Positions 16,606 to 64,000 are shown, counted from the first letter of the stretch. The stretch: DNA of 64,000 nt from Psammoneis japonica (GCA_008632985.1 QPGO01000074.1:124001-188000); one strand, 5' to 3'. The notes: generated from the sequence alone by a model not told the origin. Made by a program: numbers and translations.

Positions 16606-16872
16606 AAGTGCACAGGGCGCGTACCTACAGAACACTTGCCAGTCCATTTCAAACAGTCGGCGCAATATTACAAGAAAGCACACACAGAGCACTCGAAGCG
16701 AGTCAGACAGCTTGGCGGTAGAGTGGATCAAGAGTTTTGGCCAGACCCAATGCCATACGACCCATCCCGACACGAAAATGATTCAGACAACGAAAAGATG
16801 AAGGGAATTCTCATCAAAGGCAAACCGGGATCCAAAGGTTCTGACTGCAGCGGCTGTGGAGGCTGTGGGTGA
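16606..16872 (+). pseudogene. Orphan 3' end of a gene, weakly like glycine-rich-domain (GRDP/DUF1399) proteins
   Basis: C.GRV..EH.P...YYK.......G.....FWP...CSGCGGCG*; normal TA content, abutting the copia fragment. Confidence 0.3.
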
Positions 16873-17029
16873 GCGTTCACGATCCAATGCTTTTACGCGA
16901 CGCCGATTAACCGCGTTCAACACAAGTTTTAGTTTTTGTCAGAGTCTTCCCAAAGTTAGCTTTTGTTATCGCTGCTGTGTTTGTCCACGGGCGCTGAGCG
17001 AATTTGGATTGTCTGGCTCACTTCACCTC

Positions 17030-21431: not shown

Positions 21432-22029
21432 GAAAAGTTGTGGCGAACCAATCCGAGCTCGTACATTATCACTTGAGTGCAAGTGATTACGACCTGCTTC
21501 GCTTCAACACCATGCTCGTGCGTGGTGTGCCGTGCTCATGCTTTACTGTGCAGTACGGCCGGCACCATGCACAGCGCTGCGGGGAAAAGTGAGCCCGCGT
21601 CACCGCTCTTCGCGCAGAAAGAACAACGGTCATGAGCCACACATCACATAAATTTGCGCTTCAGCACCTTGAAAACTTGCTGCATTGTTCCGACAAATTC
21701 CGAGCCACCACCTGTGCTCAGCACCCAATGGAACAACAACACGACAATGGCACAAATTCTGTTTGTTGAATGCAATGGAGGCACTCCAGCGTCGAAATCG
21801 CTTCGCAAGATCATCCCACACATTGTTTGTGACAAAGTTGTGAAGAGACTCAGATGGTGCTGAAGCTCCTCAATTGCGCTCAATGAACGGCATTTGTGCT
21901 GTTGTGGTGGTGTTGTTCGCACGGTGAGTGCAAATGCTCATGTCTGTTTTTTCCATGGGTGACTCACAACTCAGCAAAAACATGGCCAATTTCAGTCGAT
22001 TTCTGCTGCATGCACGCAAAAAACAAGGG

Positions 22030-22166
22030 CATTGAAAGGTGCTCCTTTTTTTAAAAGGTGTTGGATTTTTAAGCCATTTTTAAAAGGTGCTGAAAATTAA
22101 AAAGGTGCCAACTTTTCAGGCTTTTTTTAAGGTGCTGGATTTTTAAAAGTGCCAAGTGTGGCACTG
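22030..22166. repeat. Cluster of AAAGGTG(C/T) motifs, possibly a DNA-transposon subterminal array
   Basis: About six aa(a)ggtgc/aagtgc units separated by T/A runs, ending gtgtggcactg (reverse complement starts CAGTG). Confidence 0.4.
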
Positions 22167-24125
22167 TCTGCACATTGCACCAAGCACAACAACTCGCACA
22201 TCCATGAGACTGCCGTGTCAAAACTTGTGGCACCAGGTGCTTCTGCTTCATTTGCTCTGAGTGAGACAGGCAGACAACAAGGGCGCACATTCAACTGACC
22301 CAGTGCACACACCCAAAACACTGACAAGACAACCCCCTGCTTGCCTGGGGTGGGTGGGTCAGCTGTGGTGATTTTTTTCTCAAAGCTGCTGCAAAACAGG
22401 AGGCCCGCTGAAGACAATTTTCACAAAAGTGCTGCAAATCCACTCATCAGCACCAGCTTTGATTTCCTTTTGTTGAGCATGGGCCATCTTGTTGCTTGCT
22501 GTGTGAAGGCCCCTCCACTGTGGCAGCAGATCCACCACACTTCCCCCCCTCTGCTTGCACCCGGCAATGAGCTGAGGAGAAGGAGAGCACACAGAAAGAG
22601 TTGTTTGAGAAATGAGATGAGCTCTGCCACCAGAGGAGGCAGCTGAATGGGTGTGATCACAGGGGGGCGCCTTTGCTTTGATTGGGCACTTTGCTGAATG
22701 GCTGCTGTGTCTCATTGTTGGCACAAACAAGGAGCTGAGATGAAAACACTCCATGCTTCAATGACTGACAATGTTGCGCTTGTCAATCTTGGGGAGAAGG
22801 ATGTCCACATGCTCTTGGGCTTCATTGGATGATGTTCTTTGTCACACTGGCAGCAACCTCTCTGACCAACTTTTGATGATGGAGCTTGCAGCCCACAAAT
22901 GGTCAGGTTCAGCAGGCAGAGAGTGTGAAATGTTGCACAGTCCATCATCATCAGCAACATGCTCTGTCTTGTGCTTGTTGTTGTTGTGCTTTGTTGCCCA
23001 ACTCTGACAAGCTTGCAAAGTTGAAGATGTGACTTGGCAGAGTTTTCAACCACACTGTGATCCAACAAGTCCTGGCAGGCCAGATTTTTTCCTCTGGATC
23101 TTTGCCATTGTCAAAGCTGGCTTGCTCTTACAGCAACATCAGAAATTCAAGTTCCTTGATCTGCCAGCAATCCATTCCTCACATCCTTGTTCATTCACTC
23201 AGCAAATTGGGCCTTGTTTGTTGTCCCTGCCACAAAGCCACAAGCTGAGCAACGTTGCCTGCTAAAGTGCCAGTCATTTGAGTGCAAAGAGGAGAGGCTT
23301 CTTTTTGTCCAAATGTTCAAGATGAGCTGTTCAAGGACACATTTTGTTTGCAGCCTGTCCAGATGCTCATGTCAAACAAGCTGAGGACAAATCAAGGCAT
23401 GTGGGCCCACTTTTCTCTCAAGCTTTTCGATGGCCACCATCAATGAGGTCATGGAGAAAAAGAATGCCAACAGCACTGTTGGCTTTTTCAGGGAGTTGAG
23501 CACAAGGAAGGTGCTTCTGTTGATGATTTAGAATCAATGAGGATCAATGGTTGTTCTTGGGTGAGGTTGGCCTGTGGTGTTTCACAAGCTGAGCAAGTCC
23601 GCCATCTTCGGGTGCAAAGAAAAGGCTTGGGGAGGTCTGTTTCATGTTTCATGTGGCTTCAAGGAGAGAGACATGTGTTGTTGACTTTCTTGTCAAGAAC
23701 TCCAAGAATCAGTCAGAGGATGCTTCTGATGTGACCCAGTCCCAAGTTTTGTTGCCACACACTTGCTCAACACGGAGCACATTGCCCAGCCACATTGAAG
23801 GTGTTTTGAATCCCCAAATGAAGGTGGCCACCAAATGCAACAAGTGGCACATCTTGTTCTTCACTTCATTCAGTCAATTTTGTTGAGCAAATTTCTGTGT
23901 GAGGCTGTTGTCATCGTGCAATCCATGAAGCAAACTGTGGCATTTTCTCAATGGCTGGTGTGTGTGTTGATGTTTTGCCAGGACACCAGCTTTGCAGAGT
24001 CCTGCAGTGATTTTGCACTGGGCAGCAGAGTGTTTGTGTGATGGAAGAAGATTGGCATGGTGGGGCAAAGCTCAGGATAGATCAAGCACACCTTTTCATT
24101 GACCACTCAGTGGTTGGTGATTGCA

Positions 24126-24163
24126 NNNNNNNNNNNNNNNNNNNNNNNNNNNNNNNNNNNNNN
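24126..24163. other. Assembly gap (N run) followed by a G run
   Basis: 38 N characters. Confidence 0.98.
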
Positions 24164-24460
24164 GGGGGGGGGGGGTGTTCAGGCAGTTGGGCAGTCGGTC
24201 TGCCCAAATTTGAGAGTGTGTCCCTCAGATTTTGGAACAGTGTGTGTTGTTCAGCACAAATGGATCATTTGGATTCAGAGAATTTTGATCATTGAGGACA
24301 TTGGAGGTCATGGGGACATCCTAAAAAAATTGACCAATTCCCTGCAATGGGTGTGTGGAACTGTTTTTCAGAAGAGCTCGAAAGTGCTGTGAAATTGGGA
24401 TTGCTGGCAAGGCTTGTTCAAAAATGCACCAAGCTTTGTGTGGACAGAATTTATCATGAA

Positions 24461-24646
24461 TTGCATGCAAAACAGCCACATTGGAAAAAACATGTCAAAT
24501 GACAAGTGAGCTCATGCGATGCACCATTTTGTTGGTGAATTGGACAAAAAAGAGTGTCCGTGCACCTCACTGCAGCCCCAAAAATGGCACAAGCCATCAA
24601 ACACAACAGTCATCTGCATCACTGGTGTGGTGGCCACGCCACCCTG
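24461..24646 (+). repeat. Dispersed ~185 bp direct repeat, copy 1 (copy 2 at 26364-26550)
   Basis: Shared cores caaaacag, gtgtccgtgcacct, ctgcagccc, aaaatggcac, agccatcaaa, gtcatctgcatca. Confidence 0.85.
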
Positions 24647-25379
24647 AAGCTCCAACAGAGCAGCATTTGATGGCGTGAGAACCTGAATGTCACAAAAACA
24701 TCATTCATGTTCTTTCTGATGATGGTGCATTGAGGCAGATGGTTTTCAATGTGTGGTGATGAGTGACATGAGACATGAACACAGCTGTTGTTCAGGAGCA
24801 AGAAGTGTGACAGCCATTGTGACAACACAATTGCCAGATGAGTTGGGAATTCCATCGAGGTTGTTTGCATTCAGTCATGTCCATCATTTTGTGAAAAGGA
24901 GCCCGCACCAGATTTTTCTGGTGGGTTTTGCACCAGCCTTTCCGTAAATGAGAAGTGGAGTGCAGAGGCTCAAGGATGCAGCGACTGCAAAAAAACAACA
25001 AATTGAGTTGCTTGAAACCACCAAAAGAGCAAGGTGTTGACAATGGATGATGTCTGTTGCATTGCAGACATTGCATGTGTCATTGCCTCAGTGTGCCACA
25101 TGCATTGAAACAAGCATGGTTCAATGCAATCCTGTCACAGGGAGGAGGTGCAAAGTTTCTGGGGTGGAGCTTGCCATGAAAGAAAAGGGCCACAATGGCA
25201 TCTGTGGTCAAAGAGCACATGTGTGTGCAAAGCAGGCAAGGAAAGGTCTGGATTTGCATCTTTGAAGTTGTCAGATGCAGCTTGGCATGGGCAAGAGTGT
25301 GCTGAATGCAGTGAAAGACAATGGAGACTCATTGGCAACATGCTCTGTCACATTTTTGCTTTTCCTTGCCATCAAGCAC

Positions 25380-26360
25380 CTTGCAAAAGCATGTCATTGC
25401 TGGACTTAGATGAAGAAGGAGCAATGTCTGGTTGTCTCACTCCAAAAAACCATGACACAACAATTGAAGCCAAACAGGAGACAAGGCCAACAAAAGACAA
25501 ACTTTGGGCTTTGCTGCAAACTTTTGAGTTGGATGAGAATCACAATGGAAGCTTCTGCCATTTTACAGCAGAGGAGCCATTGATGTGCACGCCATCCAAA
25601 ATGTCAACAAATGTTTCTCACAAAAAGCTTGCCAATTCAATGGATTTTGGTGTTTCTGAGAATGGGTGGGAGAAGGGACACAGGTTTCTTGTGATGCATC
25701 TGGATGAGAAATTCTGCCACTTGATTGGGCCAGAAGCAACAGCAATGTGGGTGCCACATTTCCCAGTGTTTCATGACAAAATGTGCCACTGTCTGAAGAA
25801 GGAGAAAACGCAAATGACACATGGAATGTGGCACAAGGTGTCATGGAACCACCTTTCTTGTGTGCCCAAATGACTGGAGCTTGACATGTGCTTCTTCACA
25901 ACTGATGCCTCTGTCTGCCAATGCTGCTGCCTTGGGTCCAGACCAGTCAGTGATGGGGCACAAAAGCTCTTCATGCATGCAATGCAGCAGTCCATTTGGG
26001 ACAGACATCATCACACACATGCCATTAAGATGCTGTCTCAGTGTGGTCCATGTGGCATGATGTTGGTGACATGTGGTCCCACATCAGCTTGTGAGCAAGA
26101 TCTGACTCTGTGTCAGTGGAGCCAGTGGGACAACTGCATTTGTGATTTGTGTTTGCAGAGACTTGGACGTGTCTTCACATGCTGACTCCACATTCAGTGG
26201 GTGTTGGTTCTGCACAAGAATGTGACATGAACCTCTTCCAGCCTTGGGCTGTGAATTGCTGATTGGATTGGAAAAATGAAAATTGCAACCTCAACAGCAC
26301 CTGTCAATCAATTAAACTCAGATGCACAAGGCCAGAACAGCTGTTCCCGCTGCTGACAAT
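25380..26360 (+). mobile_element. PIF/Harbinger (DDE_Tnp_4-like) transposase pseudogene
   Basis: FFTTDAS...SRP...AQKLF...HTHAIKM...GPCGM...GPTSACEQDL, then ADSTF and EN.NLNSTCQSIK...QLFPLL; contains stops and frameshifts. Confidence 0.65.
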
Positions 26361-26363
26361 GGA

Positions 26364-26550
26364 TTGTGCACAAAACAGTCATGTTGGAAAAAAACATGAC
26401 AAACAACAAGTGGGTTTGTGCAATGCACTGTTTGGGCAACAAATTGGGGAAAAAATTGTGTCCGTGCACCTTGCTGCAGCCCTGAAAATGGCACGAGCCA
26501 TCAAATGCAATGGTCATCTGCATCATCGGTGCAGCGGCCATGCTGCCCTG
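26364..26550 (+). repeat. Dispersed ~185 bp direct repeat, copy 2
   Basis: Aligns to 24461-24646; differences dominated by CA/TG swaps. Confidence 0.85.
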
Positions 26551-28477
26551 CCACTCCAATGCCAGCCCCCACGGCAGGGCCCTTCTTGCACACAGGCAAT
26601 GCAGCATGCAATGGCACACACCCACATCCACAAAGAAAGACAAGTGGTCAATGCTCCCTGGAGGCCTGGTCCAACCTTTTGCTCCTTTGTGACAAATCTG
26701 GCCCTCCAACAAAGACAGGCGGAGCACCCTGCTTCCAGCCCGCATGTGTGGCAGATGGAAAACAGAAGTGCAGAAAAAGAGAAAAGAGGATGAGAGCACC
26801 AATCTTCAGCCAAGTTTGTTTGCAGTTTTCCAGTCACATTGTCAATGTGATGCCCCCAAGCCATCAGCAAATCTGGGGGGGGGGCAGGATGCTGTGAGCT
26901 CTTGTTCTCCAAGCAACCAGCAAAAAAAGTTTCAGACCCCAAAACAACATCATCTCACTTGATGAATTCAATGATGTCACTGGCATTGGGAACCTGCTCA
27001 TCTTTCACAAAATGACCCTCTCTCTCAAGGGCACAGCGCTCCTTTGCAGCCAACCATTGTGCTGAGTTTTTGGTGCTGGCACCAGGCAAAGAATTTGCCA
27101 CCAAGTCATTTGCTTTGAAATGCTGCAAGCTTGTCATCTTTCAAATGGTCCAGGTGCTTTTTCCATTTCTTTCTGTTGAGAGGAAGATTTCAACAAATTT
27201 CTCTTTCCAAGGTGAGGGACTGTGTGTGCCACCTCTTTGTGCATGGCTTTGATGTCTCAGCAGATGACATGGATGGACAGCATGGGCATGGTGGTGAACA
27301 GTGGATGATTCCAACAGATGTGCTTGATGGCAAGTGCACAAATGAGGGCAAGCTTGCATCAAAAATTCTCCAACTTTGCTGCAAACGTTGTGCAGGATTC
27401 TGTGTGATTGCTGAAAGACTGCCAACCAACAATGAAAAATGTCATTCTCTGCAACATGGATTGCAAAATGAGAACAGTGGCCTCACACAGAAATTCACAG
27501 CACAAAAGTTGGCAGAATCATGTCCACACAGTGGGGTGACATGATCAGCACCAGCACAAGACCTGGTTTGGCAAATTGAAGCTTCAGCTGAGTTGACACC
27601 ATGGCTGTGTGCACAATGGTGAAAGCATGGTGACAGCTTGGCTTCGACCATGAGCACAGCTGCACACATTGTTGAAGAGTGGGGTTCCTTTTCCACAAAT
27701 CTGGCTGAAGCAATGAATGCCAGTTTGTTCCATGACCAATGGCGTGCAGTTGCTGCCCTCTCAAAGGTGTTTCCCAGGGTGTGCTGGACAATGCGTGTGA
27801 ACAACAGCACACTTTTTTGCTGTTGAAAAATCTCAATGCTGAGAAAGCTTGTCAACGTTGGCTTTTGTCAGTTGCTGGACAACACCCCCAGTTGAAGTGG
27901 CGGACGAGAGCCTTTTTTCTTTTGAGACATGTTCTCAGCAGCTGCAAAAGCTTTGGACAAGCTCAAGAGCAAAGAAAAGTCCTGAAACACTGGGCTCCTC
28001 CTGAGCAATTTGTGTGGTGTGCAAATCTGCATGAGTTGTTGGAAACCCTGGCCCAAACAAAACACACATGATGCAATCAAAGTTGATGGACAAATGCACC
28101 AAAAAAAGGGAGGGGGGGGGGGGGAGAATTGCCCAAAGCAACAGCCTTTTTTCCTCTTGAGAAAGCAGCCAATTTTCAAAGACAAGCGTGCTCAATGTTC
28201 GCTCACACTCCAGTCTGTCTCACACGCATTTTGCTGTGCCTTGTTCAGCTCATCACACAGACCAAGCTTTCCATCAACACTGCATTGTTTGCACAGGCTC
28301 TTGTTGTTTGTGCAGTCTCGCTCAGATTTATTTGTGCGTTGACCTTTGGGCCTGTGCTGCGAACGCAGAGTGAGGTCGACGGAGGCACCTCCATCTGGAA
28401 GCAGACATACAGTACAGGTGGACAGGATAAGGCGCAGGTGCACGCACTCGTGGTGTCGGGCGGTGGGGGGTTGGGGC

Positions 28478-33770: not shown

Positions 33771-34099
33771 GTGTCACTCAGTGAGTGATCATGTGGCCAA
33801 AATTCGAAAAACAGCTGTAGGGTCGCCGGAACATCATCTGTCGACGAGGAGTCGTCGTCCTCCTCCTTTCCCTGCCGCGGCCATTCTTCAGAGCACATTT
33901 GAAACATTCTTCAACCCATGTTTTACCGTTAGCTTGCCTTCTGAAATCTATCTCTGGGACATCATCCGACGGGTGATCTTGTGTCCCAGTGCCATTGCGG
34001 GATGTTCAGGAGATGGAGTCGAGTTGATCAGCGGAGATTGGGGGGCTCAGTTTTCAGTTTGCGCCAGCGAGGCATTGGCTTGAAATGCAGCTGGCGAAG

Positions 34100-35550
34100 G
34101 ATCGAAGCGGGAGGGTTGCAATGGGGGGGGCAGAAGAAAAGGGAGGGCCTGGTGTGGTGATGCGAGGTGGACCATTCAGTCAAAGTTGGTCAAGTTGATG
34201 GTTTTGAAGAAGTGGGCGTGACCAGGACATGGTGGGTGTGCTGGGACACGGTTTTGAGTGGAAATGTTTCTCAAAAAAGTTGGTGAGTGGGGAAGGGGGC
34301 ACAGGGTCCAGATGGGGTGGAAGAGCTGTTTTGCAGTGATGGAAAACTTGATGGAAGCACAGTGATTGTCTGGAGGTGGCCCAGGTGCACAGAGACTGGG
34401 CACAGAGAGCAGGAAGTGAGAAAGAGGATTGCCAGAAGATGTGGTGAGACCACGGGGGCAGAGCTGCAGAAGGAGCAGGCAAGTTGGTGAGCAACAAGGA
34501 GGGGGGCATGGCACCAGCCATGGTGGAGCAACAGCCAGTGCCGCTGGCTGCTGATGCAGGCACATGACAGAAGAGCAAGGTGCAGGGTGGCAAGGGTTGG
34601 GAGCGGGCAGCGAGGTGTCAGAACAAAAAGGCACCCCAGCATTGTTGAGTGTTTTGTTGGAAGGGAGAGGACCATGAGGTGTGACGGGAGCAGGGCCGTC
34701 AGGATGAAAGTTGCAAAACAAATGTTGGAGACTGGCTCATGCATGACAGTGGAGATGACACATGTGTGGAATGGGGAGCTCTTGGTTTGAGCATTTCAGA
34801 GTTGGCAGGATGATGAGAGGCTGCCCAGGTCATTGGTTTGTGGAGAGTTGCAGCTTTTTTTGTGGCTGGAAGGTTTGTGCAGAGAGGCAACACTGTCAAT
34901 GGCTGGCCAAAGAAACAGTGACTTGTGGTGATTTGGGGGATGAGGCCAGGTTGTCATTTGAATTTGGGAGAGACAGTGCTTGTTGCAGGGTGCTGGTGCT
35001 GACTGCGGGGCAAGTCTCAAGTCTGGGGGAGGAGAGAGCAGGAGCCAGATTTGGCGGTCGAGGTGGCGGTCTTGTCATGGCTGAGATGAACACCATGTTG
35101 GGGTCCAACAGTTGGGAGGTGTTTGAGGAACCATGGCAGTTCTGTGTGAGGGAGCCACACACCAGCATTGTCCATCAAACAGGCAGCAGTCGTGAGGTTG
35201 GTTGGAAGGGGAGGTGCTCACAGATGAAAGCTCGGAGTTTGGTTGTTTGAGAACAATGCTGAGGATGAGAGCAGCAAAGTGTGAGGTGAGAGGACAGCCT
35301 TGGCAAAAGTCTTCTGGCTGGAGGAAGGATTTCCAGGTGCCAGTGGGGTCACAACGCCAGCACATGTTGGGTGCACGGCAGAGGACGAGGTTAAAAATGG
35401 GTGTGAGTGAGATGACGGAACTGCTGGGTGAGGAGTGAGGATTCGGGGTCGGCAGGTGTCTCTGCAGCATTCATTGAAAAAGTTGTCCTGAGAGGAAAGC
35501 ATGAGAGGGCACAGTGCATTAACGTTGAAATAGAGGAGTTGTTCGACATT
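34100..35550 (-). mobile_element. Non-LTR (LINE-type) retrotransposon reverse-transcriptase remnant, hypermutated
   Basis: FFNECCR (D..NAFN-like), FLQPEDFCQGCPLTSHFAALIL (G..QGCPLS motif), degenerate YMDD region, G..L..DKT; TA/CG depleted. Confidence 0.7.
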
Positions 35551-35805
35551 GGCATGTGTGGCATGCACAAGGTCTCGACATGGACAGCAGTCGGAGTTTT
35601 TAGAGGATCGGCGCGAATTTCTCAAAACTGCCAAAACAGGCCCACAACATGATTTTCACAAAAAAGCTGTAAATCTCTCCAAATCACTCACATCCACGCC
35701 ACCGTGCGATTTCCTCTCTCATTGTCGTTTGTCGTTTCCTTCCACCTTGAACCTTCCGCATTCGACTTGAATAATCTCGAGAGTATAGAGAGAGTTGGTA
35801 GAGCA

Positions 35806-43836: not shown

Positions 43837-44038
43837 CGAAGAACTTTTCAGAAGAGGTTTAACTTGCGGCGTAAAGAGCAAATTATGAGAGCAAGGAATG
43901 AGGAGACTGAATGAGCAGTCACGGGAAATTCGCCGACATGAGCAGTCTCCGTCCGTAGAACTTGTACCAGCTTCTACGAATTCCTATCTCAACTGACAAA
44001 TGCGGCGACCGTTTCACTCCAGAAATGGAAAATCTTTT

Positions 44039-44357
44039 GTACTGGAAGCAACGTGAATTTCACGGATTCCTACTGTAACGGCAGGTTTTTTCATGGTAAC
44101 GGCCGCTAGACTGCAATGTACCGGAAGCTACGTAAATGCCACGGATTCCTACTGAAACGGCAGGTTTGCTCCATGGGTAACGGCAGCTACTAGAGTAAAA
44201 TGTACCGGAAGCTACGTGAATGCTACTGATTCCCACCGAAACGGCAGTTTTTTCAAAAGGTAACGGCAGCTAGACTGTCATGTACTGGATGTCACGTGAA
44301 TGCTACGGATTCCCATCGAAACGGCAGGGTTTTATCGATGGTAACGGCAGCTGGTAG
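44039..44357 (+). repeat. Degenerate tandem repeat, 4 units of 79-84 bp
   Basis: Units start gtacyggaag/atg at 44039, 44118, 44202, 44282; each carries two AACGGC motifs. Confidence 0.9.
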
Positions 44358-45051
44358 GGTTCAGCGTGCCTTCTACATCTCAGGGAAACGGCAGCCCAAC
44401 AACGGGGTCATTGCCGTAAAGCTTCGTATATTCAGTACGAGTTCCCATGGTAACGGCGGTATGCATGGTCATTGCATGCCGCGGCGGTGTCAGCCTCGGT
44501 GACGTGTCTCCCTTTTTTCCCTCCGACATGTTTTCACAGACCCAAGGGGCAGAATGAAAGACAACTGCCATGTCATTACAAATGCCTTCTGGCTTGGTCA
44601 TATTATACCATACCATCTGGATGGGCTGTACGATCACCATCAGCATTGGGAACCGATCGTCAATCAATGCGCATCCGACTCCGTTCCTTCTGTAATTATT
44701 CACACGTTCAAGTCTTTCGGCACAGGTAGAACCGAGTCGAGAGAAGCGTTGCCATTTATGATATTCATCTAAACGGCGGGGGGTTCAGCCCCTTGTTGGC
44801 ATCGCCTCGCGCATCGTGTTGTCGGCATCATCACGCTCCGACTCCCTCGACTGGTCGTCTTTCGGTATTCAGTGTATGAAGTTTAGCTATTTGTGCTGTT
44901 ATCTTATCAAGAATCGAGGCGAGCGAATGAACTCAAACGAGTTGGTCCTTAGAATAATGCCGTATAGAATAAAGAAGCTACTAGTATTCATATGTTGATC
45001 TACATCGTTCAACCACAATGTTTGTACAAAAATAGTACGGTCTCATTCCAT

Positions 45052-52085: not shown

Positions 52086-53965
52086 TCAGGCATTGTCATT
52101 ACGCAACTTCTCCACAACATAACCAGCACCGTCGTCACACATTGTGACCACAAATCCAGCAACAGGCCTCTTGTCTGCTCCGTCCTCCATTGTGCGACGT
52201 GTTTGAACATGTCCTGACAAATGCTCGTGAGATTTTGTGATAAAAGCAGGTGTTGGAGTATTCTGAACTTGTTTCAGTTCCAGTGTGACTACACAAGTCG
52301 CCGAACTGAATGTGACATCTGTCCGTTTTCCAGTCAGCGGCAAAATGTCCTCTTGAGTCGTCTGCACACTGCCTTTTAGAATGTCATGGGCCTCGTTGAT
52401 GACGTGCGACTGGAACTGAAGCTCCAAGATGTGATTGTCCTTGTCTGAGGAAGCCCAAGACATCAAACTTGCCATGTTGTTTTTCGAAATGGAAGTCACA
52501 AAGTCCACCAAAATCTCTTCACCTTTGTCGCAGAGATCTTCAGTGGTTGTGAGCGAAGTCAATGTTTCGAGGGATGCTCGCAGCGTTCTCAGCAGTGGTT
52601 CAAGGAGGTTTTCACGGTAGAAATCTGAGGTGATGGCGAATGTTGGATTGGTTTTCGATCCCGTTGATGACACCACTCCGAGGTGGACAAAAGCGTCAAG
52701 CAGTCACCGATGTCGATGTCTTCCCGCAATGGATGCTCCAAACTGAGTCCTTCGTTGAGCTTGTAGCCTTTCACTTCACGCCTTTCAGCCAGCTCATTTA
52801 CCACGCACCGAAGGTTCCAAGCATTTTCAAGGACGTTGAACATGGAAGACGGGATTGGTTCCCGGCATGAGCTTCCTGGCAAGGCGCCATCATGCAAGAA
52901 GCTGGCCCGAGAAGAAGGACTCCTGAGCAACTTGTTCATCAACGAATTGACCAAGCCTGTGTGATGGAGGGAGCTCCCCCCGAGAAAACGAAGGTTGTTG
53001 AAATGGCATTTGATCTTTTGGGAGGCAAGCTCAAGCTCCCCTTCTTTGAAGGGTGCATGCTCGTGGATCTCATCAAGCACACCACGAACATCAGCGTCAG
53101 TTGATCCAACAGCATCTGCCATGTCTTCCTCAAACGCAAGCGAGGCAACCGTAAGACCACTCATCTCTTTTGTGCCAATTGGAGTGATCCCCGTTGGCAA
53201 TGTTTTCACGTGGTCCAACTGCTCCAGGGCAACCTTGACAGCCCTGAAAAAAGAAAAGTGCGATCCGAACAGCACTGTGATGTTTGCGTTGACCTCCTTG
53301 TAGAGGTTGCGGCCATGCTCAGGAATTAGTCGCAGCAGGCCTTCCCGGATGGGTTGGTCGCATTCGTCAATGAGAATCAGCAATCGCCCTTGCAAAGAAT
53401 GCACAGCTGCACTCAGATTGCCAACCACCGTGCCAATTTGTTGATCGGCGATTTTGACGCCCACAGAAAACCTCTCGCAGGTTTGCTCCAGTTGCGGGTT
53501 TTGCGTCAACACGTAAATGACTCGGTGTTTGACAGCACTTGCAGTTGCCTTGTTGATGCTTTTGCAGACATCTTCCCATGTGCTCCTCTCACCATCTTCA
53601 ATTTGAGCGGAAGCGACGCCAAAGTCTAAGCGCAGGACAAACCAATTGTTCCCATCACCCTCGGACGGCGAATGACGCAGATCGCTGTCAATGTTGGAGC
53701 TTCTGTTCACCGAGAACAATTCGTCCGCAAGGGAGAAAAGCGTTGTTTTACCCAGTTGCATCGGGCGAGTGAACACTGCGGCATTGTCGTCGTGGTTGAA
53801 CATTTTCTCCAGAAACATGCTGTTGTCGCGGTGGCCACGGTCTTGACGATAGATTGCCGAAGCACCGTTCTGGTGTCGGCCAGGGAATCCAAAACTGGCT
53901 TTCATCCTTTTCGCTGATTCTTCATCTCCTGCATGAGATTCTTTGCTTTCACTTGAAGCGCTCAT
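52086..53965 (-). pseudogene. AAA-ATPase-like + PD-(D/E)XK nuclease gene, TpA-hypermutated, frameshift near 52680
   Basis: VFTRPMQLGKTT (Walker A), LILIDECDQP (IDEYD read as IDECD), FFRAVK, TGITP, KRTDVTF...TLELKQ. Confidence 0.8.
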
Positions 53966-54623
53966 GGCATCCTCATGCTTGGCTCTTTTGACGACTGGTT
54001 CTTCTTCATTGCAATGGGGGGTTGTGAGAGGCTCTCTGATCTCTGACCCCCACGTCTTGGCAAAGTGCGTTGAGCTTCAATGTTAACATCCACATGGATG
54101 TGCACATTTCCACAAGCAAAAATCCTTGTTCCATGCAGCTCCCCCAACAAATCTCTGACCACCAACATCCGAGGGCATGGCAGAGCACTTTTTGGAAGAT
54201 TGCGCACACATCACGAAAACAACATGCATTTTCATGACGACTCGACCATGATGATTGCCGGCCGCAGCGCGGCCATGGTGCCATCTGTCCGTCTGTCTGT
54301 CTGCATGCGAACTCAAGAACCGAACATTCTTCAATGTCCCGTTGAGTGTCTCAATGACTTGTTGCTCCTTGAAGCAAACTTCTGTGCCACACTTACGTCA
54401 GCAGCTGCAAGATTCGGGAGATTCGAATGACCGGGATTGTTGACACCTCTCGAAGAAATTCTGTGACAGAAACCCAAACACTGTGGCTGCAGTCAATCGC
54501 AGCTTTTCCCATGATTTTTAGAAAGCATTCGTGGACAACTTATCAAGACCGTTCACTGTGATCACACTGTGTCTTGTTCTCTCTTTCTCCTTTCTTCATT
54601 GTGCATTCTTCACCTTAAACGCA

Positions 54624-55547
54624 ATGTCGCATTTGGTGAGAGCTTCACTGAGAGCACCGTGTTTTGTGTGCAAACCAACCTTCAAACACGGAGATTTGGA
54701 CAAAGTGAAACTCGTGCAGAACTGCGACGATGGTGCCAAGAAACTGAAAATGTGTCCTCAATTCACTGGCAAGCACGGCATCGAGTGCTCACTCTACACT
54801 GCAGAGCGTTTTGAGAACTGTGCCGAGCATTTAGATTGTGATGAAGGACCTGAAAAATTCACCCATTTTGAAGAAGTGTCAGAAGACAACGCTCAAGATG
54901 TGTGGAGCAATTTGGTTTCAGGTGTCGCGGAAGCAGATCGGACCATGGCCAGGTTTGACACAGAAATCGCACGCTTTCATCAGCGACACTGTGATCATCA
55001 AGCGCGTGGTGCGATGTTTGAATTTTTGAAAAATTCTTCCAAACCTTTTGGTGATTCTCCTCGCGAGCATGCTGGCAGGATGATTCAAATGTCGCGTTGC
55101 GCCAACAAGCTGCCTGGAACTGAACCTTTGCTCAATGAGCAGCAAACCAAGAACATTGCATTCACGGGCATGCCGATGACATGGAAGCAGAATTGTGTGC
55201 GCACTGGAAAGGATGTCAGCACTGATTCTTTGGAAGATGTCATTCAACACATGTCCAATGAGAAAGGATTTGCTGATCAGAAAGGTGCTGCCAAGCCTGG
55301 CAATGATTCCAAGAAGCGCAAGGCTGGAGATGCGGAGTCTGCCGGGAACAGGAAGAAGTTTGGCCCCGACTCTCATTGTCGGTTGCACAAGGATTCTGCA
55401 GCACCTCATCTGTGGCAAAATTGCAGGGAGAATCCCAAGAGCCTGAACTGCAATCCAAATCCTCATTTTCAGAGAGGTGGCCGAGGTTCGCCAAGTGCAG
55501 GCCAAGATGCAGGCCGTGGACGAGGTCGAAACCCATGTTCAGGCTGA
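54624..55547 (+). pseudogene. gag of gypsy element A
   Basis: KPFGDSPREH...MP.TWKQ, zinc-knuckle-like CRLH......HLWQNC, GRG-rich tail. Confidence 0.7.
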
Positions 55548-58500
55548 GGAAATTATGGAGGCCGATTTTATGGTCCTCAGAACGCCAGCTGTGCTGGACG
55601 TGGACGTGGCGATGGCGGACACACTCCCAATGACAGTTTTGGACGTGGTCAAGGCGGACATGGCCGTGGTTGCAACCAAAACAGCATGGGCCGAGGATGC
55701 GGTCCACAGAATTTGCCTCAAAATTTTCACGCGAATCAAAATCAGGTGCAGAGTGGTTCAGGAGAACCAAATGCTCATCCAGCTCAACGAGCTCCTCCGA
55801 CTGATGCTCAGTCACAAGAATGGGGTGCAGATGTGCGCCATTTCGACATGGCAGGCTGTGGTCCGCCAGGAGGTCCTGACGAGACGTCAGGAGGAACGGA
55901 TGTCGGATGAGGTCCACATCCAAGAGGACCTGGATTATGATCCAGTTTGGAGTGCTGCTCCAGTCTTGGCGTCAGCTTTGAAGTTGACAACACCATTGCC
56001 ATTGACACAAATGCACCAATTGAGCACGAAATCTTTGTGTGACACATGTTTGTCACATGGAATCGACAGCGCGAAAAATCAAGAAGAGCCGATGGGGTTG
56101 CTTTGTGCTGGTGTGCCGGCACCCAAAACAAAAAACATGAATTCTAACATGGCACCTGCATCAGTGCTTGCATGCAAACAAATGAACGGAGCTCACTCTT
56201 CTCGTTCATTGAGAGTGTCATTTGATTCAGGCAGCATGACTGCTCTCATTCACGAGCGATGTTTGGCGCGTGGAGCTGCTCCAAGTCCACTCAAGAAAAC
56301 AGCAGCATGTGGTGCAGCTGCAGGACCAATGAAGAGCAGCAGAACAGTTGGTTTGGAGACAACAATGCTGCCTGAATTTGACAGATCATGGAGCATTGAT
56401 TTCCAAAAAGCTCTGATGTTTCAAACACCGTGTTGTTGCGACGTGATTCTTGGATCGGATTTTTTGGCCAAGGCTGGAATTGATGTAAATTTCTCATCAA
56501 GGACAGTCAAGTGGTTGGACAAGTCCATGCCTGTGAAAGAACTTGCCTTTTGGGACAATGCAGAGAACACTCATTTTGCTCTTGCAGGTCCAGAAGTCGA
56601 AGAAGAAATCGACGCAGTCGAGTTCCATGCATTCGCCATGCAAATTCTGGACGCCAAGTGTGAGTCAGCATCTCTGGAAGAAGCAGCTAAGAGGCAAACA
56701 CATGTGTCAAGAGAGCAACAACCGGAGTCGCAACAAGTGCCAGCCAAGTTCCCCAAAGTGTTCGACGGAAAATTGGGTCGACACCCACACAAATTGGTTC
56801 ATTTGGAAATCGACCCTAGCGCGATTCCGGTTCATGCTCGACCGCACTCAGTTCCAAAGGTTCATGAGGAGGTTTTCAAGAAAGAGCTTCAGCATTTGGT
56901 TCAGATGGAAGTGCTGAGACCATGTGGTCCCACCCATTGGGCATCTCCTTCATTTGTTGTTCCTAAAAAGGATCAACGAGTGCGGTGGGCATCCGATTTT
57001 TGCACGCTCAACAAAGCGTTGAAGAGGTTGATCTGTCCTTCACCAAGAATGCAAGACATTGTCAAGAAGAGAAAAGGGTGCAAGTGCTTCACCAAGTTGG
57101 ATCTGTTCATGTTCCATTGTGCTTTTGAGCTGGATGAAGAATCCAAGGAACCATGTGCCCTTGTCACTCCTTGCAGCAAGTTTCAACATTGTCGGCTCGC
57201 GATGGGTTTGAAACCAGCGGCAGATGTTGCTCAAGCAGTTGTTGAAGAAGTGATGAATGAGCTTGATGCAGATTGTTTTGTTGATGATGTTGGTCTCTTC
57301 TCAATGGTTTGGTCTGAGCATTTGGCAGCATTGAGTGCCGCATTGCAACATTTGGAACAAAACGGTTTGAAAGTGAACCCGCTCAAGTGCGAGTGGGCCG
57401 TTCAAGAAACTGATTTTTTGGGACATTGGATGGCTCCAGAAGACGAGCAGCTCGAGGAAAATTTGGGCCCGGAATTGAACACTCCATTCTGCACCATTCA
57501 AGATCAAGAATTGGTGGATTGCTTCTTGAATTGTCCGAGTCTGGAAGAAATGCAACACCCCTTGAATTGTCCTGACACACAAAGGTTTCAGTTTGAAGAT
57601 TGTGAGCTGAATCAAGAGCGGCAGAGGAACCCGCTTCGATTTCCGACTCGATGCGTCGGTGGAGTTCCATTGATTTGTTGGAGGCCTGAAATCAATGCTC
57701 AAGAAAATGACTGGAAAATTGCTTCACCAACTGCTTTGTTGGCGCCTGTGGTCAGGTGGCATCATCAAGTTTTAGGGCATTGTGGCATGCAAAAGCTCTG
57801 TTGCACGATTCATGCGCATTGCTGTCATCCGTTGTTGCGCCGATTGGTCGAAAATTGTCATTGCGACATGTGCCAAAGGAACAAACTTTGGGGAGTTGGA
57901 TGTGGTCACTTGCCACCAAGAGAAGCTCCTTTAGTTCCGTGGGATGAAGTGGCCGTTGATTTAATTGGTCCTTGGAAAGTGCAAGTGCAAGAACAGGAAG
58001 TCGAATTTAACGCATTGACGGCAATTGACGCTGTTTCTAACCTTGTGGAATTGGCTCACATTGACAACAAGACTTCAGATCATGTGCAGATGAAGTTTGC
58101 CAATTGTTGGTTGGCAAGATGTCCGAAACCAAACCGCTGCATTCATGACAAGGGCGGCGAATTTGTTGGTGAGCCATTTCAGATTCTGTTGGCGAGGGCT
58201 GGAATCAAAGACGTGGAAACCACCACTGGAAATCCTCAAGCCAACGCCACTTGCGAAAGAATGCATCAAACAGCTGGCAACATCATTCAAACCACAGTCA
58301 GGGGACATCCCCCTTGCAATGTGACAGAGGCTCAACACATCGTTGACAACGCATTGGCCACAACCATGCACGGTTTACGGTGTGCCACCTCAAGAGTTTT
58401 GGGAATTTCGCCAGGAGCTCTCATTTGCCAGAGAGACATGTTCCTTGATTCACCTCTCATTGCAGATTCAACTGCCGTTCGGAATCGTTGGCAAGTGTTG

Positions 58501-58803
58501 ATTGATGACAACTTGCATCGGCAAAATCTCAAAAGACGCTTTTTCGACTGTCGTGTCGGGCAACAAATTTTGGTCAAAACAGACGATCCCACCAAATTGG
58601 AAGAAAGATCTTTTGGTCCCTTTCCTGTCACACAGGTTCATGCAAATGGAAGCGTCACCATGCAAAGAGCACCTCATGCATTTGAAAGAATCAACATTCA
58701 GCGCATTTTGCCGCATCGACTTCAGCATGATCAAATGGATTGCGATTCAACGCATTCGCATGAATTGCGGAAGGGAAGAGTGAAGCAAACTTCTGCATCA
58801 TAA
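55477..58803 (+). pseudogene. pol of gypsy element A (protease, RT, integrase; RNase H deleted), open but saturated with missense changes
   Basis: FDSGS, DVILGSDFL, WASPSFVVPKKD, FTKLD, RLAMG, CFVDD, VNPLKCEW, VDLIGPW, HDKGGEF, NPQANATCERMHQ, GPFPV. Confidence 0.92.
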
Positions 58804-59016
58804 TTGCATCAGCAGCTGCAAGATTCGGGAGATTCGAATGACCGGGATTGTTGACACCTCGAAGAAATTCTGCGACAGAAACCCAAACACTGTGGCTGCA
58901 GTCAATCGCAGCTTTTCCCATGATTTTTAGAAAGCATTCGTGGACAACTTGTCAAGACCGTTCACTCCCATGAGAACGTTCTGGTTTCTATGAAGAATTC
59001 TTGTTGTGTGTCTTGA

Positions 59017-59514
59017 CCCTTCAACCACCAGGGGAGCAAATCTCCACGGGTGGAGATTTGCTCTGCTTGAGGATGTGTGACGTCTCATGCACTTTTACAA
59101 TGACATGATGAACACAGCAGAAAAATGTCATGTCCTGTGCAATCTGCATGTGGTGTGCCACGTGCATTTGCTTGTTGGGAGCAAATCTCCACCGGCGGAG
59201 ATTTGCTCCCAGGGTGTGGTGTTGTTGCTCCATTTGTGACAGTGATTCATGAAAACCTCAATTGCTGAAGGTTGAGATTTGGTTCCTCTCCATTCACAGA
59301 TGGAGCTTGCAAAAAACCCGGCGTTGAAAGGCGACATTGAACTTTCTCAACCACAAAAAGGGCGCCTCCAGATTTTCGGCGAGCGTGCGTTCCAGAACAA
59401 AATCGCATGAACAAAATGTTGTGCACATCTGAAATTGCTTCATTTGCCACATTTGTGACACAAGCGAGCAAATCTCCACCCGCGGAGATTTGCTCAAGTC
59501 CAGTGGTTGAAGGG
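59017..59514. mobile_element. piggyBac-like MITE in the 5' LTR of element B; TSDs read TTGA and TCAA (ancestral TTAA)
   Basis: TIR CCCTTCAACCAC / GTGGTTGAAGGG; the empty site in the sister LTR is TTAA (62146-62149); three internal gagcaaatctcc-ggagatttgctc hairpins. Confidence 0.88.
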
Positions 59515-60536
59515 TCAATTGCGAGACTTCCAGCACATGTTGTGCGTGTGTCCTGCGAGGACCCTTGACAAGAGCCTTGAGAAGTGGTTCTAAAGCTCTC
59601 CTTTAATCAGGCTCACAACTCATCTGTGAGCCCAATTTGCTGCAAGCACATCTTGTCCATCAATCTGTCAACTGTCACTTGATGCCACACTCGGCACAGC
59701 AAATTTGCTCCCCGTTTCTGAACACCCCATCCTTTGCTTCCACGAAGCCTCCAACATCTGCAGCAAGTTCTGCGAATTGTCCTGACCAGCCATGTCAGCC
59801 AAAAGCTGTCCTTTCCGTCTTGTTTGCTCTGAACGAACAAATGAAAAATGTCGCAAAGATCGTTTTGTGTCACTCCAGTCACCTCTCGATCCCAAAAACC
59901 CTGGTGGTCTCAAGTCTGCCATGGAATTGCGTGTGTCAGACAGTGAAGACCCTGAAGACACTCTCGCTTTCTTCAAGCGATTTGAAGAGATTTTTGTCAT
60001 CCTCAACATTGCAGAAGGAGCTCAACGTTTCCGTCTGATCAACCACCTGTTGGCTGGCCAACCATTGAATGACTGGACTGCTGTTGTCAAAGAGCATGAA
60101 GAACGCGATCAAGACACTTTCCTCGCAGCACGCGAAGAATGTCTCCTGACTGAGATGACCCGCAACATTGCGGTGGACACCAAAGATTGGCTGCAGTCCC
60201 TCAGGAAACCACGCAATGATGCCGCACAGTCATTTCTCCACTGCGTCCATCAGATCAATGATCTCATTCCATTCATGCCACTGCCTGCAGATGAAGAAGA
60301 TGCACAGCCCATTCCCAAGTTCGCAGAAGTGGAGTTGACTGCTGTCATCCGAAAAGCATGTCCCAAATCCTGGAAAAATTCTCAAGTCAAAGCAAACTTG
60401 CGCGGACTCAATCTCAGCAATCAAGTTCAACACTGCGAGGGTCTGCGCAACATTGAGAATTCAGATTCATCCTCACTGCCTCATCAAAACTGCAATGCAA
60501 CCGCACAGCAATCCAAAACAGAGTCAAGCAGCAAGG

Positions 60537-60932
60537 GACGCGTTCCAGACGTAGGTGGGAATCCGTGTGACATTGGGCCCGTAGACTTCTACGTGCGAGC
60601 TCCGTAGTAAAATTATACGGTAATTATAATGTCAATGATCGCCAACAGAAAATGAGGCAATTTTGCGAACGCACAAACTCGCACATGATTGAAGTACATC
60701 ATTTTTTACTTAGCCAGTTACATTCTTCAGACATTGAAGAATGTAACTGGCGCATATTTGTTTCTATAAATTTGTTATATAAAACGTCTGGGGCTTCGCA
60801 AAACAGCGAGTCTGGACAATTTTTTTTAAATATCACACGTAGAAATCTACGTACGAAACATACGACGGATGATAAAAATTATTGTTGTCACACGTCAGCA
60901 CTACGAGCTCCCACCTAGGGCTGGAACGCGTC
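60537..60932. mobile_element. Unmutated MITE with 24-bp TIRs and 4-bp TSD AAGG, inserted in gag of element B
   Basis: gacgcgttccagacgtaggtggga versus inverted gacgcgttccagccctaggtggga; aagg at 60533-60536 and 60933-60936; removal rejoins ORFs 59792 and 60882 (SSK-DQQAL). Confidence 0.9.
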
Positions 60933-62321
60933 AAGGATCAGCAAGCCTTGCAACAAAAATCCAACAACTCCAGCTCGAGTTCCCAAACAAACAACACATG
61001 TCCAATCCATGGAACAGTCCATCCAAATGGACAAGAGTGCAATGTTGTTCACCGTGAGCGAGAAATCTGCCAACAGCGACATCAACAAAGGCTTCGACAT
61101 GTCCAACTCTCAGAAAACACCAGCTCAGACAACCAAACTCAGAGCCAGTCGCAACAGCAGCCAACTTGTTGCTGCAATCTGTGCAGCAGAAGCAACCAAC
61201 AAAGAAACAATGAAAACAACGCGATGGAAGATCCTTCCAGCACCTGCAATGATCCCCCAGACGATCTTGGAAGCGCGCCATCTGAAACCATCAATGAAAT
61301 CTGTGATCTTCATGATGAAATCAATGAGATTGAAAGTCAGAACACTCAAGAATCTCAACAAAATGTCAGCGCAGATGTGCAAGTGCAACTCACCTCATCC
61401 TCCACCTCTCACACAGAGCAGGCACTCAGTCTCCTCGACTCTGGAGCCAACAACAACTGCGCCAAGCACGAAGCCCTTGAAAAAATCTCCCATCAAATCA
61501 AACCAATTTCTGCACCGGTGCAAAGCCGCTACAAATCAGTTCAAGTTCAGAACAAGGCAGCACCCAACATTGCATTGCCTGAATTTTCTCAATCGAAGAC
61601 TGCTGCCATCGAAGCGCACGTCAAAGATGGTGCAATCGGTCGTCATGCCATTGTTGTCGGTCGCCGAACGCACAAACAACTCAGCATTGTTCTGGATTTC
61701 ACGACTGCCACAATGACCTGTGGCAACGTCACCATCCCCATGAAAACAGAAAACAAGACTCAACATGCCACCTGTGAAGACTGGCATCATGTCAATCGAA
61801 AATGTCAAAACGCCCCACTTCAAGTCACCTCCACAAGTTGGCTCAAGCCTGAACTCCTCTCCACCAATCACTCGAAGTCCAAACTTAACTCTGCCAATGG
61901 CACAGTCACCATCCAGAGCTCTCCCAATGTCACTGAACGAATCAACATCCATCGTCTTCACCCTGTCTTCTAGACTGTTCAGTTGGGGAAGCGAGTGCCG
62001 TGGTGCCATCTGTCTGTCTGTCTGTCTGTCTGTCTGCATGCGAACTCAAGAACCGAACATTCTTCAATGTCCCGCCAAGTGTCTCAACAACTTGTCACTC
62101 CTGTGAGAACGTTCTGGTTTCTATGAAGAACTCTTGTTGTGTGTCTTAATTGCGAGACTTCCAGCACATGTTACACGTGTGTCCTGCAAGGACCCTTGAC
62201 GAGAGCCTTGAGAAGTGGCTCCAAAGCTCTCCTTTGCATCTGTGAACCCAACTTGCTTCAAGCATGTCTCATCTGTCAACATGTCAACTGTGTTTCACTT
62301 GGTGCCACATTTGGCAATGAT

Positions 62322-64000
62322 GCCTCGGGGTTCTTCCCCATCACCTTCCCAGGACACCGGCCCCACTGGCGCCATTGACAACAACACTGACACAACAGGT
62401 GATGTCATCACTCTGGTTTTCGTGGGCGCGACACATTCAGAACAAGACACTGCAAACTGACACTGTCATCTCCATGCTCCACTGCCTCCCAACAGATGCT
62501 GTCAAGAACTCCAGTGCCGCACCTGCGCTTCGGGCCCCTGGCATGCCCAACACTGTTGCTCCTGCCCTTGCTGTCACAGGTGCTGTTGACACTGTTGTTG
62601 TCTTTTGCCAATGACGTCGCACCGTCATTTTGGAGAAGCCATCAAAAAAGCACACTGCCCAGACTTGTCGAATGAGCATTTAGATTTGGCATGCAACAAG
62701 CTTTGCGATTTGTTTCTGGAGGTGCTGGGTGCCATTGATGTGGGAGTGAAAAGGTCAAAGAAGGTGTTGATCACATCCATGAGGACAACACGGGTTTGTC
62801 TCGCTGTGTGGCTTGTTCAAATCCCCACTGGAATGAAGTGGATGCCACTGGAGAAAAGCCCAGCCTTGACAACAGGTTTGAAGTTGCCAGCTCCATTTGT
62901 GGGGAAGAGTTTCTCTCCATTCTGGTCAACATTGTTGAGAGCAACATCCCTGCCCGCTCCCCAGTGCAAAAGACATTGTTGACGCACAGCAAAGTTGATG
63001 CATCATGGGAGGTGATTTGCTTTGAGAGTGGCAGCTTGTGCCTTGGTGAAACCACCTTTGCTGCAACCTGGAAAAGGAACACAGCATTGATCCGCTCATC
63101 AAGTTTGTTCTCTGCATGGATGCAGCTGGCATGTGGCATGTTCAGGCTGTCACTGTGGAAGGAAGAGGGATGTGTTTTCAACCCAGGTGGGTCACTCGGG
63201 GACAATGCACGAGGTTTTCTATGCATTTCTACATGACATGCACTTTTTGCACCACAATCGTGTGCAATTTTCGAGCTCCCACATGACGCTGTCTTTTTTT
63301 CATGCCTCATCCACAAATCGCGCACACCAAAAATGGCACCATGCCACTGCCACGAACTTGACCATCCTCACACCATCGTCCGCAATGACAAAGAAGGCAA
63401 GAATGCCAAAAGAGGTCAACAAGACTGAGATCAATGCGATGATGTGGTTGAAGTTTTGATTTTTGCCATTTGCCATGTCTTGTGGATGGCCTTTTTCCTC
63501 GTGACATTTTTTGTGCCAATTTTTCTTGTCCTCAGATTGTGATGTGGCATTCTTTGACATGCAAGGCTCTGTTGACTTGATGCTTCACACACGCAACAAT
63601 GCATGTCTTTATGATGTGTCTGTTTGATTTTTGTGATGCATTGAGTGCACTTTAAGTTGGCATGGACGACGCTTTTGGGTCGCGCACAAATGTCAAACAT
63701 TGGCGCTGACAAAAGAATGACTCTGCATTCAGTTTTGAGGGTGCACGGCAATGAAGAAGCCACTGGACGAGTCTGACAGGTGCAACATTGTAAAGCAGAA
63801 CAAAAAAAAGTGACACCCATGTGTTGCACCCATTTTGCTTTGTTCCAAGGTAGAGCCAGTCAACTGCATGTGGAAATGCTGTCTGCACTTCATTGTCACC
63901 ACTGCCTCTGCTCATCAAATGACTTGATCACTCTGCATTCATCAAACTTTGTTGCTGACATTTCAGTGCTGGCATGCAACTGACTCAAGACTCCCACACA
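62322..64000. other. TpA/CpG-depleted decayed sequence, unidentified, continues past the window end
   Basis: Near-absence of TA, TG/CA excess, overlapping Cys/His-rich ORFs. Confidence 0.65.

Follow-up and report, generated by a model that had tools for sequence, protein, structure and literature searches.

A piggyBac-type element with probably decayed TTAA target duplications inside a TpA-depleted block

In the 64-kb stretch of DNA analysed here (the window), a 498-bp element with the CCC...GGG termini typical of piggyBac lies between the tetranucleotides TTGA and TCAA. piggyBac-type elements enter TTAA and duplicate it, and the question raised by this locus is whether the two flanks are target-site duplications that have since changed and, if so, what changed them. 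Our answer, to which we give a probability of roughly 0.85, is that a piggyBac-type element inserted at TTAA and that its flanks were later altered by block-wide hypermutation of TpA steps in chromosomal DNA.

Read directly, the occupied site (copy 1) runs gtgtgtc-TTGA(59013–59016)-CCCTTCAACCAC...GTGGTTGAAGGG-TCAA(59515–59518)-ttgcgag, and a second copy of the surrounding sequence reads gtgtgtc-TTAA(62146–62149)-ttgcgag with no element. BLAST and the repeat offsets (3133 versus 2631) give a net insertion of 502 bp, that is, the 498-bp element plus 4 bp. The direct reading and the offset difference both confirm the TTGA/TCAA-flanked element described at 59013–59518 in the original prediction. 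The element starts with 5'-CCC and finishes with GGG-3', and its ends form a perfect 12-nt inverted repeat, which lengthens to 16 nt once the flanks are included and is nested in a terminal inverted repeat that is imperfect and about 59 nt long (86% identity, E 1e-12). The features of the site are listed below, X1 denoting a sequencing run that is taken up after the list.

59013–59016, plus strand: left target-site duplication, now TTGA; ancestral TTAA with A at 59015 changed to G, as read from the empty site and X1 contigs
59017–59514, plus strand: non-autonomous piggyBac-like element, 498 bp, 5'-CCC...GGG-3'; found in many contigs with unlike flanks and as internal deletion variants
59017–59028, plus strand: left terminal inverted repeat, perfect over 12 nt (CCCTTCAACCAC); the imperfect repeat extends to about 59069
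59034–59063, no strand assigned: 30-nt palindrome copy 1, of the GAGCAAATCTCCAC..GTGGAGATTTGCTC type, beside the left end; repeat search
59179–59208, no strand assigned: 30-nt palindrome copy 2, internal; repeat search
59466–59495, no strand assigned: 30-nt palindrome copy 3, beside the right end; repeat search
59503–59514, minus strand: right terminal inverted repeat, perfect over 12 nt; the imperfect repeat begins at about 59461
59515–59518, plus strand: right target-site duplication, now TCAA; ancestral TTAA with T at 59516 changed to C, as read from the empty site and X1 contigs
54264–54369, 58965–59016 and 59515–59696, plus strand: copy 1 of a low-copy host unit, broken by two insertions
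61997–62316, plus strand: copy 2 of the low-copy host unit; alignment of three similar stretches
62146–62149, plus strand: unoccupied TTAA target in copy 2 of the host unit; direct reading, repeat offsets and BLAST

The two insertions that interrupt copy 1 of the host unit are the 498-bp element and a 4.6-kb retrotransposon at 54370–58964. The empty site had been described in the original prediction as lying in a sister long terminal repeat (LTR). This label is not borne out: the sequence around 62146–62149 is a second, paralogous copy of the low-copy unit, and the real LTR pair is that of the retrotransposon (54370–54555 and 58781–58964). Inspection of the ends of the host unit, the only LTR feature of the unit that was examined, revealed no matching target duplication. 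The empty-site argument is not weakened by the loss of the label.

The other copies of the element were read from X1, which consists of contigs, 722 of which are placed on 58700–59800 (1.1 kb) at a likeness of at least 80%. Contigs with unlike flanks end at the borders of the element, and there are therefore many copies of it; the summed depth is 1,100–14,800 in bins of the element versus 170–480 in the unique right flank, a depth that is not to be read as a copy number. Two further runs, X2 and X3, contributed no sequence to this stretch, which is no sign of absence. Fifteen contigs lose their match before 59016, where the consensus of the preceding letters is ...TTA, and nine lose it behind 59515, where the following letters are TAA...; 10 more contigs reach 59518. 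The other copies read TTA/A-CCC and GGG-T/TAA (the slash marking where the alignments break), with T-rich sequence before and A-rich sequence after, and the breaks fall exactly at G 59015 and C 59516, which are peculiar to the present copy. On the possibility, raised with the original prediction, that other copies lack TTAA flanks, the X1 contigs restore TTAA on both sides. Together with the TTAA of the empty site, the continuation of other copies with TTA and TAA therefore identifies the flanks as decayed TTAA duplications and not as parts of the inverted ends.

These same data bear on the alternative that the true inverted ends are longer (GACCC...GGGTC or TTGACCC...GGGTCAA), the element having inserted between TT and AA with no duplication and nothing mutated. 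The perfect 16-nt inverted repeat obtained when the flanks are counted is what such an element would show, and blunt insertion at TT/AA would account equally well for the net gain of 502 bp. We nevertheless consider this highly improbable: the match to the other copies breaks off at 59016 and 59515, within the longer ends postulated, and their own sequence goes on as TTA and TAA rather than as TTG and CAA. Moreover, a cut-and-paste element that has inverted ends duplicates its target, and the types that make no duplication, such as Helitrons and IS200/IS605 elements, do not have such ends.

A single X1 contig skips 59015–59516. Its shorter side is 53 letters long, which is the length common to copy 2, and the contig is therefore copy 2 itself and not an independent empty allele. 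Within the element, the majority of other copies read TA at 59150, 59326 and 59352 where the present copy has TG or CA (a partial count, from the 40 of 197 differing places that are listed).

A second alternative accepts the piggyBac assignment and holds that the altered flanks were inherited. Mitra and colleagues are said to have found in 2008 that the excised piggyBac element carries 4-nt 5' overhangs from its donor flanks. A donor with already decayed flanks would then deliver 5'-TTGA overhangs, mispaired with the TTAA target, that repair would fix at both ends. This would explain why, on the strand that reads inward, the two ends of the element have undergone the same change, although a mirror-image outcome is in any case expected in half of all double hits. 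It also requires excision from flanks that are not TTAA, followed by repair toward the overhang at both ends, and we see only a slender chance for it. Since the donor would itself have had to be hit by TpA changes in chromosomal DNA, the inference on the process stands even then.

The element resembles TTAA-specific piggyBac miniature inverted-repeat transposable elements in its TTAA target with duplication, its CCC...GGG termini and its short inverted ends with subterminal repeats, and also in being small, present in many copies and found as internal deletion variants. It differs in that both duplications of the present copy have decayed, by one transition each, and in its three 30-nt palindromes, which match no described family known to us. 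The 41 reading frames scanned in the window include none with a transposase domain, and the window holds no other T(T/C)(A/G)A-CCC...GGG-T(T/C)(A/G)A element with matching ends. Pattern scans gave no match in metagenome contigs for the element end combined with the palindrome, and none in metagenome contigs or viral contigs for the palindrome alone. The palindromes fall in the three X1 bins of highest depth (about 13,000–15,000 versus 1,100–6,600 in the remaining bins of the element), and many X1 contigs join across the stretches between them. The palindrome may serve as the repeat to which transposase binds and as a site where internal deletions are frequent. The dinucleotide counts of the 498-bp element are TA 1, CG 17, CA 48 and TG 55.

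This shortage of TA steps extends well beyond the element. Six blocks, together 26.2 of the 64 kb (41%), are depleted of TA: 3701–5850, 12901–16650, 21501–28450, 33801–35650, 52151–60600 and 60901–63950. Within them the observed/expected ratio (o/e) is 0.05–0.08 for TA, 0.2–0.7 for CG and 1.5–2.0 for CA+TG. CA and TG are near equal in number in most blocks, the most lopsided being 33801–35650 (156 versus 202). The block edges are sharp, to within about 50–150 bp. Between the blocks TA o/e is 0.45–0.85 and CG o/e about 1, and there are uninterrupted frames for an ABC transporter, an acyl-CoA synthetase-like enzyme and an aldo/keto reductase. The element and the empty site lie in separate blocks:

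52151–60600, no strand assigned: TA-depleted block holding the element; TA o/e 0.08, CG o/e 0.69, CA 802, TG 802
60901–63950, no strand assigned: TA-depleted block holding the empty site; TA o/e 0.07, CG o/e 0.48

CpG is lost together with TpA, CG o/e being 0.21 in 21501–28450 and as low as 0.04 in single 1-kb intervals. Either the blocks are also cytosine-methylated, or the activity that acts on TpA also deaminates C at CpG. Some 1-kb intervals, among them 27001–28000 and 34001–35000, contain no TA at all.

The direction in which these steps were lost can be read from the retrotransposon that sits beside the element in copy 1 of the host unit:

54365–54369, plus strand: upstream 5-bp target duplication of the retrotransposon, CTCCT; the empty site in copy 2 reads CTCCT-G
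54370–58964, plus strand: Ty3/gypsy LTR retrotransposon in copy 1 of the host unit; LTRs, target duplication and the domains of relatives
58965–58969, plus strand: downstream 5-bp target duplication, now CTCCC followed by A; likeliest ancestor CTCCT/A by parsimony

Its LTRs (54370–54555 and 58781–58964) are 184–186 bp long, begin and end with TG..CA and are 94% identical. The polymerase frame at 55477–58803 encodes 1108 residues, in which Pfam detects only an RVT_1 domain, and that weakly; its 120 best relatives, the closest at 68% identity, have reverse transcriptase, RNase H and integrase domains of the Ty3/gypsy type. The frame contains a single Tyr where about 40 are expected (the median of the 120 homologues is 3.6% Tyr, range 2.8–4.7%), and only the erasure of its TAA and TAG stops keeps it open. 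At the 15 columns where at least 70% of 40 aligned polymerase homologues have Tyr, the window has Cys nine times, His five times, Phe once and Tyr never, so that 14 of the 15 TAY codons have gone to TGY or CAY. Conserved columns of other residues, taken as controls, are retained (W 10/10, K 18/18, D 25/25, F 20/24, G 28/32), and the changes at conserved Leu columns (to Ser in four, Pro in two) and Ile columns (to Met in three, Thr in one) are all as expected from TA>CA or TA>TG. The outcome at the Tyr columns, taken with the preserved controls, therefore sets the direction as TA to TG and CA, on both strands.

Such a directed loss leaves little room for ordinary neutral drift, under which two unrelated transitions would have struck an old insertion with no TA-directed process at work. 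The insertion may indeed be old, the host copies being 6–9% diverged beside the site. With an estimated change of about 3–4% per site per lineage, however, the chance that both TA steps were hit is about 0.005, and drift does not account for the loss of about 90% of the TA in the block or for the conversion of 14 of 15 Tyr codons beside intact W, K and D columns. We judge it most unlikely. Least credible of all is an assembly or base-calling error at 59015 and 59516, since, although the base calls at both positions lack read-level support, it would have to have produced two separate transitions of exactly the block-wide kind, and an X1 contig matching the window at 59573–59790 shows 0 differences.

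The timing of the changes follows from sequences that were identical when made: differences within target duplications and between sister LTRs record chromosomal events only. The two flanks of the element are unlike each other, and at least one of them therefore changed after insertion. The 5-bp duplication of the retrotransposon is likewise unequal now, CTCCT on one side and CTCCC on the other. From the aligned copies, and with the next base included, this is best explained by an ancestor CTCCT/A whose TA went to CA in copy 1 and to TG in copy 2, which takes two changes versus three from a CpG ancestor. The eight substitutions between the sister LTRs comprise two TA<->TG, one TA<->CA, one CG<->CA, one CG<->TG, one doubled CA<->TG, one other transition and one transversion. 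Doubled CA<->TG, the signature left when a single self-complementary step (TA or CG) has decayed separately in the two copies, is also the commonest difference between paralogous copies (nine in the 52–63 kb pairs, 12 in the 24.4/26.4 kb pair). Comparison of the unequal flanks, the unequal LTR duplication, the sister-LTR differences and the differences between paralogues demonstrates that changes arose after integration. The duplications, the sister LTRs and the doubled CA<->TG differences also lend indirect support to an action on chromosomal DNA itself, as in the case of B. natans discussed below.

The central claim of the original prediction, TA>TG and TA>CA changes in chromosomal DNA after insertion, is thus supported by the empty site, the TTAA of other copies, the unequal flanks and the Tyr columns. 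Its two exclusions also hold. CpG decay, a C>T change, yields neither A>G nor T>C. If a sense RNA intermediate had been edited, TG and CA could not both have resulted, nor could a duplication made at DNA integration have been altered.

Two known hypermutation processes were considered as causes and rejected. Fungal repeat-induced point mutation (RIP) resembles the process in the window in being a transition hypermutation of repeated or mobile chromosomal DNA that acts on both strands and destroys reading frames. Its chemistry is the reverse: it turns CpA into TpA by C>T and so enriches TA, whereas in the window TpA becomes CpA or TpG and is nearly eliminated; RIP would have the opposite outcome to the block ratios (TA o/e 0.05–0.08, CA+TG o/e 1.5–2.0). 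ADAR-type adenosine-to-inosine hyper-editing of retroelement RNA shares the A>G change with a preference for a 5' U/T neighbour. Editing at the level of RNA is nevertheless at odds with the equality of the two strands (CA 802 and TG 802; Cys 9 and His 5) and with changes in DNA-transposon duplications and sister LTRs, which are post-integration.

The TA steps that survive within blocks are not a random sample of sequence contexts. For each tetranucleotide centred on TA we compared its density inside blocks with that outside, using 117 in-block TA steps versus 1475 outside. The in-block/outside densities are:

TTAA: 0.56
CTAA/TTAG: 0.37
GTAA/TTAC: 0.15
CTAC/GTAG: 0.11
ATAA/TTAT: 0.11
CTAG: 0.08
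ATAG/CTAT: 0.06
GTAC: 0.03
ATAC/GTAT: 0.01
ATAT: 0

TTAA is the most resistant TA context in the window, and the survivors are mostly TTA or TAA. TTAA accounts for 25 of 117 TA steps in blocks versus 65 of 1475 outside (odds ratio 5.9, p 9e-10). Of the 25 in-block TTAA, six belong to a cluster of TTTTTAA(A/G) motifs at 22051–22143; among isolated survivors, 14 of 74 are still TTAA. The pattern is a candidate for the sequence rule of the mutating activity.

Several points weigh against our reading of the flanks. No sister-LTR status is established for copy 2, which is 6–9% diverged near the site. The evidence on the flanks of other copies is a plurality consensus with a mean agreement, averaged over positions, of 0.44–0.47 (0.42 for the set ending at 59518); a value of 0.44–0.47 is the expectation for three fixed letters joined to random flanks, and, the agreement being given as a mean only, this evidence is good but imperfect. 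G 59015 and C 59516 are without read-level support, X1 being made up of contigs and the 40 listed places among the 197 that differ including neither. The resistance of TTAA makes the loss of both flanks plausible (roughly 0.2–0.3) but not the default outcome. Finally, the changes are mirror images; with them the perfect 12-nt inverted repeat becomes one of 16 nt, which is how a longer inverted end would look too.

The survival of TTAA in copy 2 is, given the same context pattern, unremarkable. Because the element lies inside a block that has lost about 90% of its TA, and because TpA hypermutation has already been measured (in the 2026 preprint discussed below), the flank changes are less surprising than the original prediction had scored them. 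From the alignments within the window and to X1 we regard as demonstrated the insertion at TTAA, the block-wide and strand-symmetric change of TA to TG or CA, which includes the adjacent host letters, its dependence on flanking bases and the parallel loss of CpG.

The proposed course of events is as follows. A non-autonomous piggyBac-type transposon entered TTAA in low-copy sequence and, through duplication of the target, came to have TTAA at either end. The multi-kilobase block as a whole, including the Ty3/gypsy element, was afterwards hypermutated at TpA, giving TG, or CA where the other strand was hit. In each flank the A on the strand reading 5'-TTAACCC into the element became G, so that the left flank now reads TTGA and the right flank TCAA. 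As to chemistry, the likeliest, by analogy with what has been proposed for B. natans, would be that adenine at TpA is deaminated in the DNA to inosine; a modified thymine that mispairs would accord with the data just as well. The blocks may be targeted through a silenced chromatin state, and the activity may be episodic, as suggested by the TA-rich, CpG-rich sequence at 60537–60932 between depleted blocks.

This sequence is about 396 bp long, has 24-nt inverted ends (GACGCGTTCCAG...) with AAGG on both sides, and is rich in TA and CG. It carries 31 TA in about 365 bp, unaltered between two depleted blocks, and is probably either young, having inserted once the latest round of hypermutation was over, or exempt from the process.

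What the other blocks consist of is harder to name. Of 27 block reading frames searched against Pfam (26 from a scan of the blocks, and the frame at 54531–55547), 24 have no match, one has a weak match below the cut-off (SSFA2_C) and two have host-like domains, leaving most blocks unnameable. TAA and TAG being rare, 30 reading frames of at least 200 residues occur across all frames of the window; as the block frames searched mostly lack Pfam matches, open frames in depleted blocks are not evidence of genes. The host-like domains are a MYG1-type exonuclease fragment at 62739–63233 (plus strand, E 2.5e-11) and an AAA-ATPase_like frame at 52592–54076 (minus strand, E 7e-9), and their presence means either that the process is not restricted to recognisable transposons or that these are dead duplicated copies. 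A run of 38 N lies inside a depleted block at 24126–24163, and a sequence of about 80 bp is tandemly repeated at 44038–44360, elsewhere in the window.

A search of the literature for TpA-directed hypermutation of transposons found only one report, a preprint on Bigelowiella natans (B. natans) whose supplements, which may hold context data, were outside the search. According to its text, two integrated viral regions in mutation-accumulation lines mutate at about 6e-7 per site per generation, and of 231 mutations in the viral inserts 230 are A>G or T>C, every one falling on TpA (Mettrop et al., bioRxiv 10.64898/2026.01.13.699255). The same text describes, for the roughly 85 Mb of nuclear genome that were callable (90% of the whole), 124 clusters in which TpA is depleted, CpA+TpG enriched and reverse transcriptase and DDE domains over-represented, gives a value of 0.45 for a giant-virus insert, and proposes an ADAT2-like deaminase (bioRxiv 10.64898/2026.01.13.699255).

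As far as the preprint text describes the B. natans system, the likeness to the window is close. There, too, only TpA is hit, becoming TpG or CpA depending on the strand, in blocks of foreign or mobile DNA, and the long-term trace is a loss of TpA with a gain of CpA+TpG, enriched in reverse transcriptase and DDE genes. The preprint defines clusters by at least three consecutive 1-kb windows with TpA at or below 0.43 and CpA+TpG at or above 1.52, in a statistic (Rho) from which our o/e may differ slightly. By the o/e measure, 21 of the 64 1-kb intervals pass these cut-offs, and four runs of at least three result (13001–17000, 22001–28000, 56001–60000 and 61001–64000). Since the signature in the window is that of B. 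natans as the preprint text gives it, the mechanism behind the flank changes is already in print.

There are also differences from what that text reports. The window is near saturation (TA o/e 0.05–0.08 over 41% of its length), as against the 124 clusters and the insert at 0.45 in B. natans, and the targets here are a Ty3/gypsy element, a DNA transposon, target duplications and the low-copy DNA between them. The window, unlike the preprint text, shows depletion of CpG as well (o/e 0.2–0.7) and a visible tetranucleotide rule. In the running text of the preprint, as distinct from its motif figure and tables, the terms 'trinucleotide', 'CpG' and 'piggyBac' each occur 0 times. Relative to that text, what is new here is the evidence from target duplications, the near-saturation in transposon blocks, the accompanying loss of CpG and the context rule under which TTAA resists.

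B. natans is intron-rich. The genes of the window, by contrast, are uninterrupted reading frames, unlike those of chlorarachniophytes, whose intron richness is noted in the title and abstract of PMC12730881, and 41% depleted DNA is also unlike an average stretch of such a genome. The organism may therefore be a different one. A preprint on a ciliate without introns contained no dinucleotide data.

The significance of the locus lies in evidence, at the level of sequence only, that the rewriting of TA to TG and CA acts on integrated DNA and reaches the host letters beside a transposon, which complements the one experimental report. The context rule is a mark by which candidates for the enzyme can be tested. 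Should the organism lie outside the chlorarachniophytes, the defence would extend across more lineages than is known at present. Tentatively, and with the odds somewhat against it, we envisage that, should the window come from an intron-poor eukaryote beyond the chlorarachniophytes, a 'reverse-RIP' defence that deaminates adenine at chromosomal TpA would be more widespread and would take whole silenced blocks, with their retroelements, DNA transposons and the DNA between, to near saturation. It would erase TA between non-T and non-A neighbours and spare TTA/TAA and above all TTAA, and young insertions such as that at 60537–60932 would date its episodes. If this were so, the spared TTAA would incidentally preserve piggyBac target sites inside the very blocks that the defence rewrites.

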